Virus record (IMG/VR): IMGVR_UViG_2529293042_000032
Span: 1-7,728 of that record
DNA: 7,728 bases
Source: a virus
Lineage: Duplodnaviria > Heunggongvirae > Uroviricota > Caudoviricetes
Strand: one strand, 5' to 3'
Shown: positions 1 to 7,728 of the stretch, one piece after another
Layout of the letters: the number at the start of each line of letters is the position of its first letter
Position numbering within the stretch: position 1 is the stretch's first letter
Program-made: the position numbers and the translations under genes
The notes under the pieces: model-generated
What the model was told of the DNA's origin: nothing
Database searches by the model: none
Seen by the model: the letters and a program-made list of their open reading frames with translations, nothing else

Positions 1-168
1 TCAAGCATTATGCAGGCTGTTTCTTTTTATCACCGGCCACAGCAATACCACAATGCCGCAGACCAGCACCCCATCCGCCAGCACCGACATGATTCTGCTG
101 GTGAAATCCACCATCACCACCAGAAACAGCAGGAGTGCAGCCACAGCCAGGCGCAGTTTTACCGTCAC
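1..168 (-). CDS. Small hydrophobic protein, 55 aa, two predicted transmembrane segments, function unknown
   Basis: Minus ORF GTG(168-166) to TGA(3-1): MTVKLRLAVAALLLFLVVMVDFTSRIMSVLADGVLVCGIVVLLWPVIKRNSLHNA. GGAGA Shine-Dalgarno 7 nt upstream. GTG overlaps the upstream TerB-like stop in a GTGA junction. Below the length cutoff of the ORF track. Window edge coincides with its stop codon. Confidence 0.55.
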   Translation of the reverse strand: MTVKLRLAVAALLLFLVVMVDFTSRIMSVLADGVLVCGIVVLLWPVIKRNSLHNA

Positions 169-596
169 AGGTGATTCTCCAGACGAAGACCCAGAACACC
201 GGCAATCTCTTCCAGCACCTTGCGCTCTTCCGGCTCAATTTCGCCGTCTGCCTCCGCAATGGCCACCGCCACATCCAGCACATCTTCCGCTTCACGCGTA
301 TCGTGTTTCACATCCTCAATCTCACGTAACGCCGCACGACGACCAGTTTTAAAGTTCGTATCCAGCTGACCGATAATGGTTGCGCTAATCGCATTAATTT
401 CTGACGTAAACGCGTACAGCGCAGGCTGATTACGCAGTACCTGTTCGATCTTCGCTTTCTCGGATGCCTCACATTCACCATCTGCACAGGCCACCAGGTA
501 TGCGGCGTTAATCACCACCTGTGCCAGATCGCGTTTTTCAAACTTTTTAATTTCCGTTGCCGCTCTGCGGGCTTTTTTACCAAAAATACCAAACAT
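165..596 (-). CDS. TerB-domain (tellurite-resistance TerB-like) protein, 143 aa
   Basis: ATG 596-594 with AGGA SD upstream, stop TGA 167-165. Two ADGE-x-E repeats (ACADGECEASEKAKIE and AEADGEIEPEERKVLEEI) typical of the TerB fold. The 215-aa version in the ORF track would read through the tRNA genes and is rejected. Confidence 0.8.
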   Translation of the reverse strand: MFGIFGKKARRAATEIKKFEKRDLAQVVINAAYLVACADGECEASEKAKIEQVLRNQPALYAFTSEINAISATIIGQLDTNFKTGRRAALREIEDVKHDTREAEDVLDVAVAIAEADGEIEPEERKVLEEIAGVLGLRLENHL

Positions 597-725
597 CGTG
601 ACGTTCCTTTGGGTGGGTGAGCCAACGCCCGGGAGCGATCTGCCCACAGAGAAAGTCACACTGACCACTCCGTAAGCTCCCCCCGAAAGGCTCTGTGGTT
701 GGTATGCGCCGGGCGTGGTGCGGAT

Positions 726-750
726 ACAAAAAAGGTCCGCCGAAGCGAGC
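726..750 (-). terminator. Candidate intrinsic terminator after the tRNA cluster
   Basis: Minus-strand RNA stem GCUCGC/GCGGAC (one mismatch, one G-U) with UUCG tetraloop followed by U6 (plus-strand A728-A733), 15 nt past the tRNA-Arg 3' end. Confidence 0.35.
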
Positions 751-764
751 GTGGAAAATAAGTG

Positions 765-840
765 TGGTGCGTTGTAGTGGGTCGAACCAGTGACCGATTG
801 CTTAGAAGGCAATTGCTCTGTCCGGCTGAGCTAACAACGC
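765..840 (-). tRNA. tRNA-Arg (anticodon UCU), T-arm non-canonical as read
   Basis: 76 nt manual cloverleaf: acceptor GCGTTGT/ACAACGC, D-stem GCTC/GAGC, anticodon stem ATTGC/GCAAT with loop CUUCUAA, CCA encoded. T-loop reads TTCGAC (6 nt, one short) in a CCC run. Confidence 0.65.
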
Positions 841-853
841 AGAATACCGATAA

Positions 854-929
854 TGGACCGCCATCGGGGACTCGCCCCCGCGCAACCAGCTTGTTATGGT
901 GTCGTTCTCTCCTGATGAGCTAATGGCGG
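854..929 (-). tRNA. tRNA-like sequence, degenerate (possible pseudo-tRNA)
   Basis: 76 nt lying between the two clear tRNAs. Perfect 7-bp acceptor stem CCGCCAT/ATGGCGG, T8-A9, GCTC D-stem start, encoded CCA. No convincing anticodon stem-loop; T-arm stem CGGGG/CCCCG with loop GCGAGT lacks TTC. Confidence 0.3.
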
Positions 930-936
930 TTTGTGA

Positions 937-1012
937 TGGTGGCCCTTGCTGGATTTGAACCAGCGGCCTGGCGATTATGAGTCGCTCGCTCTCACCACTG
1001 AGCTAAAGGGCC
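937..1012 (-). tRNA. tRNA with anticodon CAU (Ile2 lysidine-type likely; Met not excluded)
   Basis: 76 nt canonical cloverleaf: acceptor GGCCCTT/AAGGGCC, D-arm GCTC-AGTGGTGA-GAGC, anticodon loop CUCAUAA, T-arm GCTGG-TTCAAAT-CCAGC, CCA encoded. Resembles enterobacterial ileX-type tRNA from memory. Confidence 0.75.
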
Positions 1013-1021
1013 GGGAGCAGA

Positions 1022-1050
1022 ATAATAACGGTCCGTAATTAATTCCGCAA
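1022..1050 (-). promoter_or_regulatory. Candidate sigma70 promoter for the tRNA cluster
   Basis: Minus strand TTGCGG-N17-TATTAT ending about 10 nt upstream of the tRNA 5' end. The -35 is weak and overlaps the upstream terminator U-tract. Confidence 0.25.
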
Positions 1051-1074
1051 TAAAAAACCCGCTCAATGGCGGGT
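1049..1074 (-). terminator. Intrinsic terminator downstream of the Q-like gene (tR'-like)
   Basis: Minus-strand RNA hairpin ACCCGC-CAUUGA-GCGGGU followed by UUUUUAUU, about 80 nt after the Q-like stop codon. Confidence 0.6.
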
Positions 1075-1151
1075 TCTGGTAAAGTTCATGCGTTTGGTTC
1101 GCCTCGCGATACAGCTTTGCGAAGCTTACCGGAATTGAAGCAGTTTTTACG

Positions 1152-1718
1152 TCAAAAAGCAATAACTTTTTTCTCTATACCAAAAGCCATAACCATTGGT
1201 TTGTACAAAATAAATTCTGCCACCTTTAGCCAATGCTCAATGCGTCTTTCACAGGTTCTTAAACTCCATTCCGGATGTGCATCATTCAGCAATTCAGCCA
1301 TTTTGCGCTTAGTCATCCCCCGCCCCACATAACGCTGACTCAGAACATTGAGCAGCCCGGGATAACCTGCCAGTACTTCACCAATAACCCTATCGATTAT
1401 TAACGCCTCTGAATCGGTACAATGTGCCAGCCAGCTTTTTTGATTGCCGTTGATCATATCCCGCAAAAAAGCCTCAAGTTCAGGTTTGTCCAGACCCGCT
1501 TTTTTCATCCTCCGGAGCGCCTCGTTAATTGCCGTTTTTGTCAGCTTTTTAGAGGTCAGTAATTGGTTGAACATATTTCCCGTCTTACCGTCGCCAATAT
1601 ACGACCAACGCCCCCACATACGCAGTTTCCCCTGGATCCAGACACTTTCCAGCGTTTTCAGGCGTAAATGCTCACCGCTTTTGCCTGTAATTTCCGGGTA
1701 TATCATATTTATGCTCAC
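1152..1718 (-). CDS. Putative late-gene antiterminator Q-like protein, 188 aa
   Basis: GTG 1718-1716 (alternative ATG 1706-1704) to TGA 1154-1152. Sits directly after rusA and directly before a strong terminator and the tRNA cluster, the canonical Q slot. Assignment by synteny, not by search. Confidence 0.5.
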   Translation of the reverse strand: MSINMIYPEITGKSGEHLRLKTLESVWIQGKLRMWGRWSYIGDGKTGNMFNQLLTSKKLTKTAINEALRRMKKAGLDKPELEAFLRDMINGNQKSWLAHCTDSEALIIDRVIGEVLAGYPGLLNVLSQRYVGRGMTKRKMAELLNDAHPEWSLRTCERRIEHWLKVAEFILYKPMVMAFGIEKKVIAF

Positions 1719-2073
1719 TCACTTTCAATTTTGTAAATCTTCACGCCCAGCCGCCCACCAGAAACGAGCTAGCCGCGCACAATATTGATTTCATCAAACT
1801 GCTCGTCGTCTATGGGAAGTCCGGCATGCGTCAGCGCATCCAGTGGTGCTTTCAGGATATTGTCCAGGTCACGACGGCGCTTATCCGGTGGCTCTGCAAT
1901 AATCTTTATCGCCAGCCTTCCGGACAGGTTAATTTCAGCCGCTGCTGGCGAACAATAAGTGCCACATCCCGGCGATAACGCTCACCGGCTTTTGATACAA
2001 AATATGTGCTGCCACGACGTCGCCAGTAGGTGTTCACCGTCGGCGGGTAAGGCAAAACAAACTCTATACGCAT
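1715..2073 (-). pseudogene. rusA: RusA-like Holliday junction resolvase, disrupted by a frameshift and an in-frame TAG
   Basis: ATG 2073-2071 (GAGG SD) reads MRIEFVLPYPPTVNTYWRRRGSTYFVSKAGERYRRDVALIVRQQRLKLT then hits TAA 1908-1906. The RusA motif continues in another frame (GRLAIKIIAEPPDKRRRDLDNILKAPLDALTHAGLPIDDEQFDEINIVRG), meets TAG 1771-1769, then LVSGGRLGVKIYKIESE to TGA 1717-1715. Span is 359 nt, not a multiple of 3. Confidence 0.65.
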
Positions 2074-2085
2074 CAGTAACCTCTT

Positions 2086-3190
2086 TTACCCGAGCACGCC
2101 GGTTGCAAAGGCGTGATCAAGAAAACGAAAAATTAAATCAACCTGGGAACCATGCTTTTCTTCGAACGCCAGCGGATCCGCATGAAGCTCGTTGTGATGC
2201 TCCCGACACAGCGGTAGCGTGAAAATATCGTGGGATTTTGTTCCCATTCCGCCCTGACCATGACCAATCAGATGATGAGGATCGTCCGCTGGCCTTACCA
2301 CAACACGCACACGGCTGTGTCTTTACCCAGCGTGTGTATTTCTCATTTACCCAGCGGCGACGTTTAGGTCGTTTCATGAAGGATTCCGGAGACTCCGGAT
2401 CAACGGCAATGCTGACCACCGTCTTTTCCTGTGGTGGGTTCTGTTGCTGGTGGGTGTGAGGCGGTAGCGCAATATTTTTTGTGCGCTGCTTCAGTATGCT
2501 GGTGGCGGTCTGTTCTCCCGGTATGATGTCGCTTTCACGGTATACGGAGCGGATTTTTTCCGCCGGTAATCCCAGAGAGCGACGCGATACTGCCTCAGGT
2601 AATGCGTCCACCACCTGATTGCAGACTGCCCACCAGGATAATTCAGCCAGCGATAATTCCCGCTCCTGCGTGCCATTCATTACATGGCGTATGACGTCAA
2701 TCATCCAGGCTGTCAGATTTTGTTGAGTAAGTTGCTCAAGTGATTCGGAGGTCTGGTCGCGCAGCTGGTTGTCGCAGTGCCAGCACAACACCATTGCGCC
2801 AGCACCGTAACTGTGAATAACGGTTTCGCTGTGATGATAATCGCCGTGTGGCCACTGGCAGGATTTCACGTGACGTAATAACCAGTCAGACAGTGCACCA
2901 GCGCCGCCAGCTGCACGAATCACCCGCTCATCGCTGAAAAATGGCAGCAGTGATTTATCTTCCGCCAGCGGCTGGCGAACAGCAGGAACCGCTCCAGATG
3001 GCAGCGCCCGCATGTTTTTCGGTTCCGGCTCCACCAGCACCCTGCCGCGATGAAAAACTGGCAATGATTCACGACCGGGCTTAAGGACCACCAGCCCGAG
3101 TTCCGGAACCAGAACAGGTCGAAGTAATACCCGCACATTACCTCCAGACGCGCTGACGGTAGCAGGCATGTGTCCGTGGCAGATGTGCAC
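2086..3190 (-). pseudogene. YdfU/DUF968-like Cys/His-rich protein, apparently frameshifted in its C-terminal domain
   Basis: Long frame (GTG 3190 or ATG 3169) carries MKRPKRRRWVNEKYTRWVKTQPCACCGKA then low-complexity sequence to 2138. The conserved continuation DDPHHLIGHGQGGMGTKSHDIFTLPLCREHHNELHADPLAFEEKHG is in the +1 frame, ending TAA 2088-2086. Switch near 2290-2296 (GGCC run). Layout resembles E. coli Qin YdfU (about 350 aa) from memory. Confidence 0.45.
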
Positions 3191-3410
3191 GAACAGGAAG
3201 ATATACAGAAACGGTCCAGGTCAGACGATCAGCGTTCAGACTCCGCTCCACACGGACACCGCGACGCAGATACGCCTCTTGAAGCATATCTGCCTCATCG
3301 ATCGTACAGAACAGATAGTGAAACCAGCCATACTGAGGCGCACGAAAACGCCTCCCCTGCTTAATTTCCGGGTCGGCTTCAGAATTGTGGGATTTTATGT
3401 GTTGTGTCAT
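3138..3410 (-). CDS. Hypothetical protein, 90 aa
   Basis: ATG 3410-3408 with GGAG SD 6 nt upstream. Starts MTQHIKSHNSEADPEIKQGRRFRAPQYGWFHYLFCTIDEADMLQEAYLRRGVRVERSLNADRL. The last 30 residues look low-complexity. Overlaps the start of the next ORF. Confidence 0.4.
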   Translation of the reverse strand: MTQHIKSHNSEADPEIKQGRRFRAPQYGWFHYLFCTIDEADMLQEAYLRRGVRVERSLNADRLTWTVSVYLPVRAHLPRTHACYRQRVWR

Positions 3411-3459
3411 CGGATTCTCCGGTGACAGCAGGTGTCAGTTGTTCAGGCTGACTGCGCGA

Positions 3460-3488
3460 ATTGTAAGGCAATACGCCGGAATGTACAA
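3460..3488 (-). promoter_or_regulatory. Candidate sigma70 promoter (TTGTAC-N17-TACAAT) for the nin-like/Q operon
   Basis: Minus strand -35 TTGTAC (3488-3483) and -10 TACAAT (3465-3460) with 17-nt spacer, between the upstream terminator and the 3410 start. Confidence 0.3.
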
Positions 3489-3514
3489 ACAGAAAACCCG
3501 TCAGTAAGACGGGC
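3486..3514 (-). terminator. Intrinsic terminator after the YgiW-like gene
   Basis: Minus-strand RNA CCCGUC-UUACU-GACGGG followed by UUUUCUGUUUG, 18 nt past the stop at 3534-3532. Confidence 0.55.
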
Positions 3515-3531
3515 TTAACAAGCAGGGGCGG

Positions 3532-3876
3532 TTACTTTAATAATTTCAGTGCCTTTACATCAACTTCAACACTGCTCAGGTCTTTATCAATTTCACCCTC
3601 AATTCTTACTTTGTCTTTCGGAGAAACATTCTGACCGGCCCATATGCTGTCATCGATATCCGTGACAATTGTCCCGCTATTGTCACGAAACTCATAACGT
3701 TCATCACCCACTTTTTTAACGATGCTCCCTTCAAGGATAACCCATGCATCATCCTTCAGTTCTTTTGCCTGCGCTACTGTTGAACGCTCTGCTTCAGGCC
3801 CTTGGAAACCGCCCTGCTGTGCAAAAGCGCCAAAAGACACACCAGAAATAAGTGCTGCAATCAATACCTTTTTCAT
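3532..3876 (-). CDS. YgiW/YdeI (BOF) family OB-fold periplasmic protein with signal peptide, 114 aa
   Basis: ATG 3876-3874 with AGAGGA SD. N-terminal signal MKKVLIAALISGVSFGAFA. Family pattern QGGF.GP...STV.QAK.L.DD..V.L.G.IV.K..D..Y.F.D..G.I..DIDD..W present. Confidence 0.8.
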   Translation of the reverse strand: MKKVLIAALISGVSFGAFAQQGGFQGPEAERSTVAQAKELKDDAWVILEGSIVKKVGDERYEFRDNSGTIVTDIDDSIWAGQNVSPKDKVRIEGEIDKDLSSVEVDVKALKLLK

Positions 3877-3995
3877 TCATAGTCCTCTTTCAGAGATGAA
3901 CATTCAAACAGCATTTTCAGTATGGTAAAGCGCGGGTGCGTTGAGGATGCCTGACACATCAGAGGTGGCGGGAGATTACTCCCCCGCTTGGTCTC

Positions 3996-4151
3996 TTACT
4001 TCTCAGATTCGTAGTCTACGAAGACAGCGACCTCCGTCTGACCGGTTCGGATTCGCACCTCGCAGAGGTCTTTCCTCGTTACCAGTGCCGTCACTATGAC
4101 GGTTAAACAGATGACGATCAGGGCGATTAACATCGCCTTTTGCTGCTTCAT
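3996..4151 (-). CDS. hok: Hok/Gef family membrane toxin, 51 aa
   Basis: MKQQKAMLIALIVICLTVIVTALVTRKDLCEVRIRTGQTEVAVFVDYESEK with AAGGAG SD. Single TM segment followed by LTRKxLCE[IV]R...EVA.F..YES signature. An in-frame upstream ATG at 4208 would give 70 aa. Confidence 0.8.
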   Translation of the reverse strand: MKQQKAMLIALIVICLTVIVTALVTRKDLCEVRIRTGQTEVAVFVDYESEK

Positions 4152-4441
4152 AGCCTGCTTCTCCTTGCCTTTCGGCACGTAAGAGGCTAACCTACATGTG
4201 TTCAGCATGGATTGAGCCTCAGATTAATGTTAAGCGTCTTGCCGGACGCGTAATGTTAACTGGGGCTTTTCTCTATCTGCCGTTGGTGTTCATGCCCGAG
4301 GCAGATAGCCTCAAGCACCCGCAGCAATTCTACTTAACTCTCCTTTTCCCGCAAACCGTTTTTATCTCCAGCGACAAATCGAATACACAACCAGCACCAC
4401 CGCCATTACTGTTCCTACATTTGCGAATGCTTCAGGCCAGG

Positions 4442-4837
4442 TCATTGATTCACCTTCTGCTCAATATTTTTAAGGTCATTTTCCGCATACAGTATTGCAG
4501 TTCTTGCTGCCCGCAACCGTGCTTTGGTGTTCTTTTCTTCACGCTCGAGGCTGGCAACAGATTCTCGGAGCTGATCGTGTCTGTTATGAAGCTGTCTAAT
4601 CTCTCTCACCACAGCCTCACCATCGTTCGCACACCGCAGAACATACTGAAAAGGGTCCACAACACATCCGCACTGCAAGCACAGGATAACGTGATCCTGT
4701 TCATGAACCTCAATGGCCCGATGCTTACAGCTCTGTTGTGTGTAGTTTTTTCTGCCAGTTACTGTAATGTTCAGCAGCTTCTCTTCATCGCGCTTTGGCT
4801 GCACCAGTGTGATGATATTATCGCCTTCATTTTCCAT
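4442..4837 (-). CDS. Cys-rich zinc-ribbon-like protein with C-terminal coiled coil, 131 aa, function unknown
   Basis: ATG 4837-4835 with AGGAGG SD 7 nt upstream; start shares one base with the upstream TGA (TGATG). Cys cluster SCKH..ILCLQCGC..RCAN then heptad-like C-terminus. The 156-aa version in the track lacks an SD and overlaps the upstream gene. Confidence 0.55.
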   Translation of the reverse strand: MENEGDNIITLVQPKRDEEKLLNITVTGRKNYTQQSCKHRAIEVHEQDHVILCLQCGCVVDPFQYVLRCANDGEAVVREIRQLHNRHDQLRESVASLEREEKNTKARLRAARTAILYAENDLKNIEQKVNQ

Positions 4838-5736
4838 CAGTTCACCTCCTGCGGCGGTTCTGGTAGCGGCATCCAGTGTGACGGTTTCCACGACGCACCA
4901 GGAATTATCCACCCATCATTAGCGTCAGGATGCCCCGGGATGTAAGTCGCCCACTTCATTCGCCAGTCACCTTTCCTGTCAAACTCCACGGCAACAAGAA
5001 CGGCTGTTTTGGTATCCGGCATTCGCTCACTACAACTTATCCAACCATCCGGAGTTACCGGAGAGTTGCCAGACAGCGCATTCTGCAACCGTTCCAGCTT
5101 AACGTATTCCTGAACCCTGTTTCCGTCGCACGCCTGAAGCCATTGCTCAGCCTTTTGCGCATCAGTGTGAAAGGCACAAGTGCGACCGTCATCAAATTGC
5201 ATTTCGTAGAGGTTAGCAATCTGTTCAAACTGCGTGTGTGGCAACTTGTAAGTTTGGCTTACGAGTTCGGCTTCCAGTTCTGCTATGCGCTTCTCTGATG
5301 CTTCAAGTAACGCCTGCTTATCGCGTAGCGCTTCTTCCAGTTCAGCAACATGGCATTCACTATCAATAAGGTTGTTCTCTGCTGCTCCCAGCTCAACTCT
5401 CAGCTTCCCAACCGTAAGCGCAATCTCCTCGTTCTCCTGGTCGCGGCGTTTGATGTATTGCTGGTTTCTTTCCTGTTCATCCAGCAGTGCCAGCACGGTA
5501 GCCGGGTTAGCCTCTGCTATGAATTCAGCGTTTGCATAAGCCTGATCATCTGATTCAATCAGGCAGTTAACATGACATTCCGCAATCACGCCACCGGGTT
5601 CTCCTTTCCATTTTTGGCAAACAAAAACTCCTGTTAAATTGCCGTGCTGGTTAACAGATGTATGCCCTACGATGTAGCTTCCTTTAGTTGCTTTCTCTGC
5701 CTTTTCACGCAGTGCCTGATAATTAATTTCGCTCAC
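4837..5736 (-). CDS. Ea22-like N-terminal domain / DUF551-like C-terminal domain protein, 299 aa
   Basis: GTG 5736-5734 (AGAGAGG SD) overlapping the TraR stop in a GTGA junction. N-terminus MSEINYQALREKAEKATKGSY...NPATVLALLDE, central coiled coil, C-terminus DGWISCSERMPD...VLVAV...WMPLPEPP. Assigned from memory. Confidence 0.65.
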   Translation of the reverse strand: MSEINYQALREKAEKATKGSYIVGHTSVNQHGNLTGVFVCQKWKGEPGGVIAECHVNCLIESDDQAYANAEFIAEANPATVLALLDEQERNQQYIKRRDQENEEIALTVGKLRVELGAAENNLIDSECHVAELEEALRDKQALLEASEKRIAELEAELVSQTYKLPHTQFEQIANLYEMQFDDGRTCAFHTDAQKAEQWLQACDGNRVQEYVKLERLQNALSGNSPVTPDGWISCSERMPDTKTAVLVAVEFDRKGDWRMKWATYIPGHPDANDGWIIPGASWKPSHWMPLPEPPQEVN

Positions 5737-5954
5737 TTCGAACCTCTCTGTTTACTGATAAGCTCCAGATCCTCCTGGCAACTTGCACAAGTCCGACAAC
5801 CCTGAACGGCCAGGCGTCTTCGCTCATCTATGGGATCGCCACACTCGCAACAATGAGTAGCAGATGGGGCATTACTATCGGATTTGTATTTTTGCAGGGA
5901 GAGATTGCGCTGCAATTCTTCGATTTCAGCGGCGTTGTCGATGATATCTGCCAT
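5733..5954 (-). CDS. TraR/DksA-family C4 zinc-finger protein, 73 aa
   Basis: ATG 5954-5952 with AGGAAAGGA SD. Two CxxC pairs (CCECGDPI...CRTCASCQ) in the TraR arrangement. Confidence 0.8.
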   Translation of the reverse strand: MADIIDNAAEIEELQRNLSLQKYKSDSNAPSATHCCECGDPIDERRRLAVQGCRTCASCQEDLELISKQRGSK

Positions 5955-5974
5955 TTTCCTTTCCTTCAGGCATG

Positions 5975-5999
5975 AAAAAAGGAGCCGAAGCTCCTTTGG
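5975..5999 (-). terminator. Intrinsic terminator between the AntA-like gene and the traR operon (possibly bidirectional)
   Basis: Plus AAAAAA-GGAGC-CGAA-GCTCC-TTTGGTTTT. On the minus strand the GGAGC/GCUCC stem with UUCG loop is followed by U6. Sits in the 47-nt gap between the 6002 stop and the 5954 start. Confidence 0.5.
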
Positions 6000-6001
6000 T
6001 T

Positions 6002-6631
6002 TTAGAATTCGAATTGCCTTGCCCGCAGGCTTTTCAGCATTGGTCTGGCCCGCTGAACTACGAAACTCGACTGGTCAAGCCGTGCCGCCTCTCTCAGTAG
6101 CACATCTCTGTTCTTCGTCACCATGTAGATGGTCTCAAACGCAATGTCATACAGCTTGTTCGTGTATGAGGAGTTCAGCTCTTTCATGATCGGATACAGG
6201 TGTTTGCTGAGGTCCTGGGCTTTTTCCATCCAGAGTTGCATGTAGCAGAGGAGGATGATTTCCTCGTCTGTGAATTGTTGCTGTGGTTCTGCTTGTGCCG
6301 ACTGCATGTTGCGAAGTTTCTTTTCGCACTCGATGAAGTATCTGCGTATCTGTCGGCCTTTTTCGTTACGCTCTACCATCGCCGTTTCTTTGGCTGTATC
6401 GAGGGTAAGGTGGTAGTCTTTTTTCCCTCGCCCATAACCTATTTCCCGTTTCTGGGAAATAGCTATATAGTCCTGATTTTCAACGAATCCGTACTCTTCA
6501 ATACGTTCTGTAATCCACGATGCAAAGCGTTTACCTACTCCAAGAAAAGTATGTAAATCACGGGCATTAACGAGAAGAGTGGTTTCGTTGGCGATAGTGC
6601 CGTTGAATACGGGGATGCGTTGACTGGTCAT
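6002..6631 (-). CDS. AntA/AntB-type phage antirepressor-like protein, 209 aa
   Basis: ATG 6631-6629 with AGGAGG SD 6 nt upstream. N-terminal LLVNARDLHTFLGVGKRFASWITERIEEYGFVENQDYI and HLTLDTAKETAMVERNEKGRQIRRYFIECEKKL match the AntA-type antirepressor N-domain as I recall it. Confidence 0.65.
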   Translation of the reverse strand: MTSQRIPVFNGTIANETTLLVNARDLHTFLGVGKRFASWITERIEEYGFVENQDYIAISQKREIGYGRGKKDYHLTLDTAKETAMVERNEKGRQIRRYFIECEKKLRNMQSAQAEPQQQFTDEEIILLCYMQLWMEKAQDLSKHLYPIMKELNSSYTNKLYDIAFETIYMVTKNRDVLLREAARLDQSSFVVQRARPMLKSLRARQFEF

Positions 6632-6659
6632 GATGACCTCCTTATTTGTTTAGTTTATA

Positions 6660-6682
6660 ACCGCCAGTTAGTAGCTGGCGGT
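6660..6682. repeat. Perfect 8-bp inverted repeat (ACCGCCAG-N7-CTGGCGGT) 10 nt upstream of the antA SD
   Basis: Read directly: arms 6660-6667 and 6675-6682, loop TTAGTAG. Confidence 0.6.
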
Positions 6683-6849
6683 CGGGTGTCAACTGAGCCA
6701 AATAAGAAGCTCTGGGCATATTCCCCTTGCGGGTGTTGTATTACGCCTCTCCACCCGACCTTTGTACGGATGTAACTATGCCAAATTGCAGGCATAAAAA
6801 AGCCGCAAAGCTATCGGGTGCGGAGACCGCTTATTTGTTCAGTGCGGTC

Positions 6850-6879
6850 AGTATGCGATAGCTCTGGAGGATTTGTCAA
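6850..6879 (-). promoter_or_regulatory. Candidate sigma70 promoter with consensus -35 (TTGACA-N18-CATACT) for the antA transcript
   Basis: Minus strand TTGACA at 6879-6874, CATACT at 6855-6850. Would give a leader of about 210 nt that contains the 6660-6682 palindrome. Confidence 0.3.
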
Positions 6880-6926
6880 TCAGCGGAATATTGATGAACG
6901 GGTAACGGTAAATGCCTCATCCAGAA

Positions 6927-6963
6927 AATTAACGCAAATTCGCATCGCAAACTTGCGTTAATT
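6927..6963. promoter_or_regulatory. Perfect 11-bp inverted repeat AATTAACGCAA-N15-TTGCGTTAATT, operator-like
   Basis: Read directly: arms 6927-6937 and 6953-6963. A third ACGCAA-like half-site (TCGCAAA) lies in the spacer. Confidence 0.45.
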
Positions 6964-6994
6964 ATCTGAAATATCAAGTTAAATCCCCTTAAAT

Positions 6995-7080
6995 GTTTGG
7001 GGCACTATTGGGGCAAAATGTGGTTGTTTGGGGCACTATTGGGGCAAAATGTGGTTGTTTGGGGCATATTTGGGGCAAAA
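6995..7080. repeat. Tandem direct repeat, 31-bp unit x about 2.8, giving six TTGGGGCA motifs
   Basis: Units 6995-7025 and 7026-7056 are identical (GTTTGGGGCACTATTGGGGCAAAATGTGGTT); a variant partial unit runs 7057-7080. Motif starts at 6997, 7008, 7028, 7039, 7059, 7070 (spacing alternates 11 and 20 bp). AAAGAACG x2 follows at 7080-7098. Confidence 0.75.
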
Positions 7081-7186
7081 AAGAACGTATAAAGAACGGT
7101 GTAAAATTGATTTCTTCATGGTCAAAATGAGGTGTAACAGATTGAAAAATATATGCTCTTGGACGATCTTCGGTAATTCTGTGTTT

Positions 7187-7249
7187 TTAATGCTTCATGG
7201 TTTCAATATGTCCGTACATGGAATAATAAAGCACCAGAACTTTAGCCAT
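7187..7249 (-). pseudogene. wrbA: 5' fragment of host wrbA (codons 1-18) truncated by prophage insertion
   Basis: Minus ATG 7249-7247 encodes MAKVLVLYYSMYGHIETM, matching the WrbA N-terminus from memory, then diverges into KH-stop (TAA 7189-7187). Confidence 0.7.
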
Positions 7250-7620
7250 TTCTAACCACTCCTCGTGTTATCTCTATTCCGTAGCGATTCGCTACCACTT
7301 ATTTAAAGATAAGACGTCCTTTTCAGAGTGCAAATTTCACAACCACTTATTTGATTTATAACAACTTTCACAAGCACGCAATTTTGTCGCAAAATGACAC
7401 ATTTTTATCTCATCGCGTTTTTTTAATCATAAGAGCGGCTTATGGATAATTATTGGAGATGATATCTATTCTCGCTAAGAAGCTGTTGCAGGATATTACC
7501 AAACGCGGGTAGAAACACGTCAGTTCACTAAGCTTAGTCCCACGTAGCGAAAATATGGCAGCCGCCATACGCCGCGTTAATTCTAGCAATATGATGTCTA
7601 TACCCAGACGGAGGTCAGTA

Positions 7621-7728
7621 ATGGCAAACCATCGAGGCGGTTCCGGCAATTTTGCAGAAGACCGCGAAAGAGCATCAGAAGCAGGTAAAAAAGGTGGCAA
7701 GAGCAGTCACGGCAAAAGCGACAACTAG
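7621..7728 (+). CDS. ymdF: KGG-repeat general stress protein (YmdF/YciG family), 35 aa, single-repeat form
   Basis: ATG 7621 with GGAGG SD 6 nt upstream, stop TAG 7726-7728: MANHRGGSGNFAEDRERASEAGKKGGKSSHGKSDN. Lies next to wrbA as ymdF does in E. coli K-12. Window edge coincides with its stop codon. Confidence 0.8.
   Translation: MANHRGGSGNFAEDRERASEAGKKGGKSSHGKSDN

Follow-up and report, generated by a model that had tools for sequence, protein, structure and literature searches.

Genes and features of the window

The stretch of DNA analysed here (hereafter the window, 7,728 nucleotides) carries, from left to right, a segment of a lambdoid prophage, the right arm of another prophage, of the 933W type, and a piece of host chromosome that begins inside the gene wrbA. 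It is the reverse complement of positions 139–7866 of a draft contig of 71,885 bp (AIFG01000019.1, from GCA_000249295.2).

The leftmost part (1–3562, minus strand) is a nin–Q segment that encodes TerB, a tRNA-Arg, a tRNA-Met/Ile2, Q (DUF1133), RusA, a DUF968 protein and a 90-aa hypothetical protein. It is closest to the prophage located at 1.90 Mb in EDL933 and to the homologues of that prophage (99.2% identity over 1098–4460), and the Q gene of the window belongs to this prophage, not to the 933W type. Relative to the closest prophages, the window has 1-bp indels at 1929 (TT versus TTT) and 2293 (CC versus C), which frameshift rusA (about 1769–2074) and the DUF968 gene (2087–3136), respectively; these indels could be either sequencing errors or the mark of real pseudogenes. 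Regarding the tRNA genes, tRNA-Arg(tct) and tRNA-Met(cat) both lie within 765–1098, and the equivalent tRNA of related prophages is annotated as tRNA-Ile in RefSeq. An 85-bp stretch (1013–1098) replaces 1,245 bp of the closest prophage, which there contains a gene for a helix–turn–helix (HTH) protein and a small open reading frame. Another prophage of EDL933, at 2.155 Mb, is identical to the window over 967–1291, while 415–966 matches neither of the two.

The genes of the 933W-type arm are all on the minus strand. The first one from the left, a YgiW/YdeI-family (BOF) gene (3532–3876), holds the point where the sequence passes from one prophage to the other. It is followed by the hokW/mokW toxin gene and its sok antisense region (3996–4320; 933W annotation, and an Rfam match to sok, RF01794, of 113.5 bits), a gene for a hypothetical protein (933Wp77, 4442–4912), and genes for an Ead/Ea22-like DUF551 protein (933Wp78, 4837–5736), a DksA/TraR-like zinc-finger protein (933Wp79, 5733–5954, according to the 933W annotation) and the anti-repressor Ant (933Wp80, 6002–6631, with the Pfam domains AntA and P22_AR_C).

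Beyond ant, the phage DNA is non-coding up to the junction (6632–7199) and 100% identical to 933W; this stretch is the phage arm of the attachment site, equivalent to the P arm of lambda. This arm also contains, immediately before the start codon of ant, a match to the Rfam family sRNA-Xcc1 (RF02221; 6672–6760, minus strand) that extends over the full length of the model and scores 69.1 bits, the gathering score being 53. Between this sRNA-Xcc1-like element and the TTGGGGCA repeats described below, we also noted a 22-nt inverted repeat (6922–6968) whose arms are 86% complementary and separated by a 3-nt spacer. Promoter and terminator scans of 6600–7728 returned counts at or near chance level.

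The host part of the window consists of the 5′ end of wrbA, the divergent intergenic (promoter) region of wrbA–ymdF (7250–7620), which is 100% identical to the host flank of VT2-Sakai and to O157:H7 strain Z1826, and ymdF (7621–7728, plus strand), present as the short O157-type allele of 35 aa. Compared to K-12, this allele has a 66-bp in-frame deletion: in K-12, whose protein has 57 aa, the 22 missing codons lie between the two RASEAGKKGG repeats. The same 35-aa allele occurs in O157:H7 Sakai and in Z1826, and is thus typical of the lineage.

The prophage–host junction in wrbA

A minus-strand open reading frame of 20 codons (7249 to 7187) straddles the junction. Its product, MAKVLVLYYSMYGHIETMKH, reads MAKVLVLYYSMYGHIETM followed by KH and a stop; the last two codons and the stop codon are phage DNA. 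Residues 1–18 are identical in WrbA from O157:H7 strain Z1826 and from a K-12 derivative; in these two proteins, MAKVLVLYYSMYGHIETM is followed by ARAVAEG... at the point where the window has KH and the stop. The original prediction was that this frame starts with the exact N-terminus of WrbA and diverges from it at codon 19; both statements hold, with 18 of 18 residues matching K-12 and O157:H7. At the DNA level, the host-derived part of wrbA comprises codons 1 to about 15 (7207–7249, minus strand, the B′ side of the attachment site) and is identical to the intact gene of Z1826 and K-12. Phage DNA supplies the third base of codon 17 and the whole of codon 18 (ATG) and preserves Thr-Met by chance, so that the divergence of the protein becomes visible only from codon 19 on.

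When the window is aligned against the wrbA–ymdF region of E. coli, as the prediction had called for, identity to the host starts at 7196, with 7199 mismatched. This mismatch is the only one in 533 bp of host flank compared to Z1826, and 7025–7728 is 100% identical to VT2-Sakai. The host flank is therefore what is expected of this locus, namely the beginning of wrbA, the sequence upstream of this gene, and ymdF. The locus itself is common, since 7196–7728 aligns to wrbA–ymdF in about 5,300 complete E. coli genomes (some match is found in 5,418 of the 5,426 searched). On the other side, the phage DNA corresponds to the right end of a phage genome: positions 5700–7206 are 100% identical to 60164–61670 of 933W, and over the longer interval 3485–7206 (3,722 bp) the identity is 99.84%, with 6 mismatches.

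The two identities overlap by a few bases, and the exact position of the crossover emerges from the comparison of four sites: attR in the window (...TTCATG GTTTCAA TATGTCC...), attB in O157:H7 Z1826 (...GCCATC GTTTCAA TATGTCC...), attL in VT2-Sakai (...GCCATC GTTTCAA CATGTCT...) and attP, reconstituted from the end plus the start of the 933W record (...TTCATG GTTTCAA CATGTCT...). The 7-bp GTTTCAA, at 7200–7206 in the window, is the sole stretch that is identical in all four, and makes up the crossover (overlap) region of attR; in the wrbA sense it is TTGAAAC and reads aTT GAA AC, in codons 15–17. The same heptanucleotide is annotated as the "attR core" at 61664–61670 of NC_000924, where it forms the last 7 nt of the record, so that the 933W genome record terminates at position 7206 of the window. 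A junction had been proposed at about 7195, with phage DNA on its left and host DNA on its right: the sides are correct, while the position was 5–11 bp to the left of the true core.

The flanks of the core are themselves partly identical (CAT-n-core-n-ATGTC), and the published integration site in K-12, CATCGTTTCAATATGTC, matches the core and its flanks (bioRxiv 10.1101/2022.08.08.503262). Judged from these sequences, attP (CATG-GTTTCAA-CATG) and attB (CATC-GTTTCAA-TATG) would both have the organization seen in lambda, an overlap of 6–8 bp between inverted core-type sites. Two other short repeats involve the boundary of the core: TTCATGGT recurs 79 bp to the left of the core (7107–7122 and 7186–7201), and the core region has an inverted counterpart of 11 nt, ACAGATTGAAA, 53 nt to its left (7137–7147 and 7201–7211). 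Each may be an additional site for Int or an accessory protein, or may have arisen by chance.

Which end of the prophage is present can be deduced from the records of complete elements. In those of 933W and VT2-Sakai, int and xis adjoin attL, together with the 3′ part of wrbA; in VT2-Sakai, wrbA carries the annotation 'divided by the insertion of prophage', an att site is marked at either end, and int adjoins attL. Since int and xis are found at the other junction in these records, the window contains attR, the int-distal end (P-O-B′ in lambda), and there is indeed no integrase beside the junction in the window. The prediction that the window contains one prophage end is thus confirmed and can be made specific.

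The 933W record (NC_000924/AF125520, from EDL933; Plunkett et al. 1999) has the same GTTTCAA core at the same position in wrbA, and the same genes ygiW, hok/sok, p77, ea22-like, dksA-like and ant. VT2-Sakai, or Sp5 (AP000422; Makino et al. 1999), shares the att site, the host flank and the short ymdF, but its ea22/DUF4752 region is a different one, at 98–99% identity. The att cores annotated in these two records agree with the literature (PMC7430833; bioRxiv 10.1101/2022.08.08.503262) on the point, also made in the original prediction, that wrbA is the integration site of 933W-type Stx phages. Taken together, we conclude with a probability of about 0.96 that 7200–7206 is the attR crossover core of a 933W/Sp5-type (Traversvirus) Stx-converting prophage inserted in wrbA. 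Both flanks, the 7-bp core and the end of the prophage are identified by direct observation, and no evidence speaks against the assignment. An attR in wrbA was already known (Plunkett et al. 1999; Makino et al. 1999), and as far as the att site is concerned, the window yields nothing new.

Regarding the toxin, there is no stx gene within the window, and the toxin type and the completeness of the prophage are beyond its reach. It may be asked whether the element in wrbA is a Stx2 phage at all, or a stx-negative or Stx1-converting relative that has the same int/att module and right arm. The arm matches Stx1a-converting phages (26 records) as well as Stx2a-converting ones, which, with the absence of stx from the window, leaves some room for this idea. 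We nevertheless consider it unlikely, since the arm is 100% identical to 933W over 5700–7206 and 99.84% identical over 3.7 kb, while the figures for VT2-Sakai and the Stx1 phages are 98.4–98.6%.

The junction is also far from unique. A 121-bp probe centred on it is fully covered in 214 of the 5,426 complete E. coli genomes, the others matching the wrbA half only, and the same right arm is present in 241 phage records, which include both Stx2a- and Stx1a-converting phages. The possibility that the junction is artefactual, or resembles wrbA by chance (owing, for instance, to a chimeric contig or a wrbA-like paralogue), is effectively refuted, and is negligible in our view, considering that these 214 genomes, and curated records of phages and prophages whose att sites are annotated, contain a junction identical at every base, and that 520 bp of host flank match O157:H7 at 100% identity.

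The following integration mechanism would account for the junction. The tyrosine integrase of the phage would recombine attP (...TTCATG GTTTCAA CATGTC...) with attB (...GCCATC GTTTCAA TATGTC...) in codons 15–17 of wrbA, by strand exchange across the 7-bp overlap common to attP and attB, which is standard for a tyrosine integrase and is assumed here from the enzyme family. The gene wrbA is thereby split: the promoter and the first 15 codons or so stay at attR, fused to phage DNA that is read for a few more codons up to a stop and gives the 20-aa remnant, while the other 180 or so codons would be found at the opposite junction, beside int and xis, outside the window and outside contig AIFG01000019.1. 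The sequence expected for attL in the lysogen is ...GCCATCGTTTCAACATGTCT.... As read from the sequence, the wrbA promoter now drives the 20-codon remnant. Since the insertion splits wrbA, WrbA is inactivated in the lysogen.

The phage arm also contains candidate arm-type sites for the integrase. A 31-bp unit is repeated in tandem at 6994–7080 (plus strand, 2.8 copies), and gives six direct TTGGGGCA motifs, at 6997, 7008, 7028, 7039, 7059 and 7070; within the window, the exact 8-mer is confined to these repeats. In the int-side arm of 933W, TTGGGGCA is present at 71–78 of the record and CTGGGGCA at 82–89, on the same strand; this pair has the 11-bp spacing seen in the window and lies 64–82 bp past the core. 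The six TTGGGGCA repeats, 120–200 bp from the core, may therefore be arm-type Int sites, direct repeats in both arms being the expected layout. The copy number of the 31-bp unit varies: it is 2.8 in the window and in 933W, and VT2-Sakai has one extra unit with TTGGGGCA.

This organization resembles that of the lambda-type att sites (attP being P arm-core-P′ arm, and attR P-O-B′), in which a 7-bp overlap also has short, imperfectly inverted flanks, direct-repeat motifs are present in both arms, and int and xis lie at attL, as in the 933W type. The likeness does not extend to the sequences: the core and the motifs are unrelated to those of lambda, the integrase of the 933W type is Rac/Qin-like according to the annotation of the record, and the sites proposed here are predicted.

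From this junction, the host can be recognized as a lysogen of the O157:H7 type whose wrbA is occupied by a 933W/Sp5-type prophage. In O157:H7 lineages I and I/II, wrbA is the site of the stx2 prophage, and its attB was identified by Plunkett et al. 1999 (PMC7430833); an occupied wrbA is a standard typing marker for the Stx2a phages of these lineages.

A switch between two prophages

It had been predicted that all the DNA to the left of the junction is phage DNA. This is correct, and the identity to 933W is 100% over 5700–7206, but the DNA comes from two phages: the 933W-type sequence extends only from about 3634 to 7206 (about 3.6 kb) and gives way, within 3563–3633, to that of the second prophage, whose Sp9/CP-933O-like nin–Q region is oriented as it would be in no intact prophage. 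Beyond the right arm, collinearity with 933W is lost. In 933W, a huge gene with an LPD5 domain, and tail genes, lie to the left of ygiW, where the window has the genes DUF968-rusA-Q-tRNA-TerB. We rejected the possibility that an intact 933W spans the window, considering that 1–3484 is unmatched in 933W, which has the LPD5-domain gene there instead.

The switch occurs inside a ygiW–hok module that is common to both types of prophage (3485–4460, 976 bp), the two versions of which are 97.3% identical, with 26 differences. The distribution of the latter is simple. The 4 positions of the module at which the window differs from 933W are all at 3518–3562, and the 22 at which it differs from the CP-933O-like copy are all at 3634–4456. 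According to this SNP map, the alleles are therefore of the Sp9/CP-933O type to the left of the interval 3563–3633 and of the 933W type to its right. EDL933 has one copy of the module at about 1.3915 Mb and the other at about 1.9023 Mb, on opposite strands, which means that the switch falls inside a 976-bp repeat that occurs once in each prophage, in opposite orientations.

The hybrid joint has no counterpart in the collections searched. No place covers at least 80% of 2900–5400 in the 5,426 complete E. coli genomes or in 50,697 phage records, and an exact 158-nt pattern that is specific to the hybrid has no match in IMG/VR. The YgiW protein encoded across the switch is widespread (in 4,774 blocks of the collection), but every place that was examined has the normal 933W layout and is uninformative on the hybrid.

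Misassembly or inversion

Two explanations of the joint are about equal in our view. The first one, to which we give even odds, is that the joint is an artefact of assembly: the assembler would have passed from the right arm of 933W into the nin region of the other prophage by way of the near-identical ygiW–hok module, and stopped at the next repeat. The position of the joint supports this idea. The window lies within the terminal 7.9 kb of the draft contig AIFG01000019.1, which ends 138 bp beyond position 1 of the window, inside repeated prophage sequence, and the joint is about 3.7 kb from that end. In the last 1.3 kb, alleles of at least three prophage copies alternate in a fine mosaic, rusA and DUF968 are both frameshifted by the 1-bp indels (1929 and 2293), and the joint is present in no other genome searched. 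Against this idea, a collapsed repeat would show mixed alleles rather than one clean switch, and the identical stretch in which the switch falls, being 71 bp long, could be phased by individual reads of about 100 nt. In the lambdoid prophages of O157, mosaics of this kind also occur as genuine features.

The second explanation, which we hold to be possible, at somewhat below even odds, is a real rearrangement, by recombination between the inverted ygiW–hok modules of the Stx prophage in wrbA and of a Sp9/CP-933O-like prophage. Using EDL933 coordinates, recombination between the modules would invert about 511 kb; it would leave attR on the Q/late region of the other prophage, and the Stx prophage in two parts. 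The gene order of the window is exactly that predicted for one of the two joints of such an inversion, the modules are 97.3% identical over 976 bp and inverted in EDL933, and there is one clean switch of alleles, with 4 SNPs on the left and 22 on the right and no switching back. There are also precedents, since inversions between prophage repeats of O157:H7 have been documented and verified by PCR (PMC7430833). In these cases (Iguchi et al. 2006; Stanton et al. 2020, PMC7430833), an inverted repeat of two lambdoid prophages likewise leads to chimeric prophages. However, the case of PMC7430833 involves Sp6 and Sp14 and is near-symmetric about the replication terminus, while the putative one described here would involve the Stx prophage of wrbA and a Sp9-like prophage that lie, by EDL933 coordinates, within one replichore. 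The absence of the joint from the 5,426 complete genomes and from the phage collections also argues against a real rearrangement, as does the fact that it is seen from one joint alone, near the end of a draft contig.

Two other scenarios were rejected. A deletion against CP-933M/Sp4, the prophage to the left of wrbA, is incompatible with the strand of its Q, which is the wrong one for a deletion, and that prophage has no ygiW module. Nor can the window be a single odd prophage inserted backwards in wrbA, considering that the junction is of the P-arm/attR type and that there are no int, repressor or replication genes between the att site and the nin–Q region.

An artefactual joint would be a reason for caution with prophage regions located at draft-contig ends. 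The complete reading of the rearrangement, namely that the switch is real and that the Stx prophage in wrbA of an O157-like strain has been split by an inversion of about 0.5 Mb against a Sp9-like prophage and is not excisable, is one that we put forward tentatively, with more doubt than confidence. If it is true, attL and attR would be far apart and inverted with respect to one another, and excision by Int and Xis would no longer be possible; the Stx prophage would then be locked in the chromosome as two chimeric halves, which bears on the mobility of the toxin phage.
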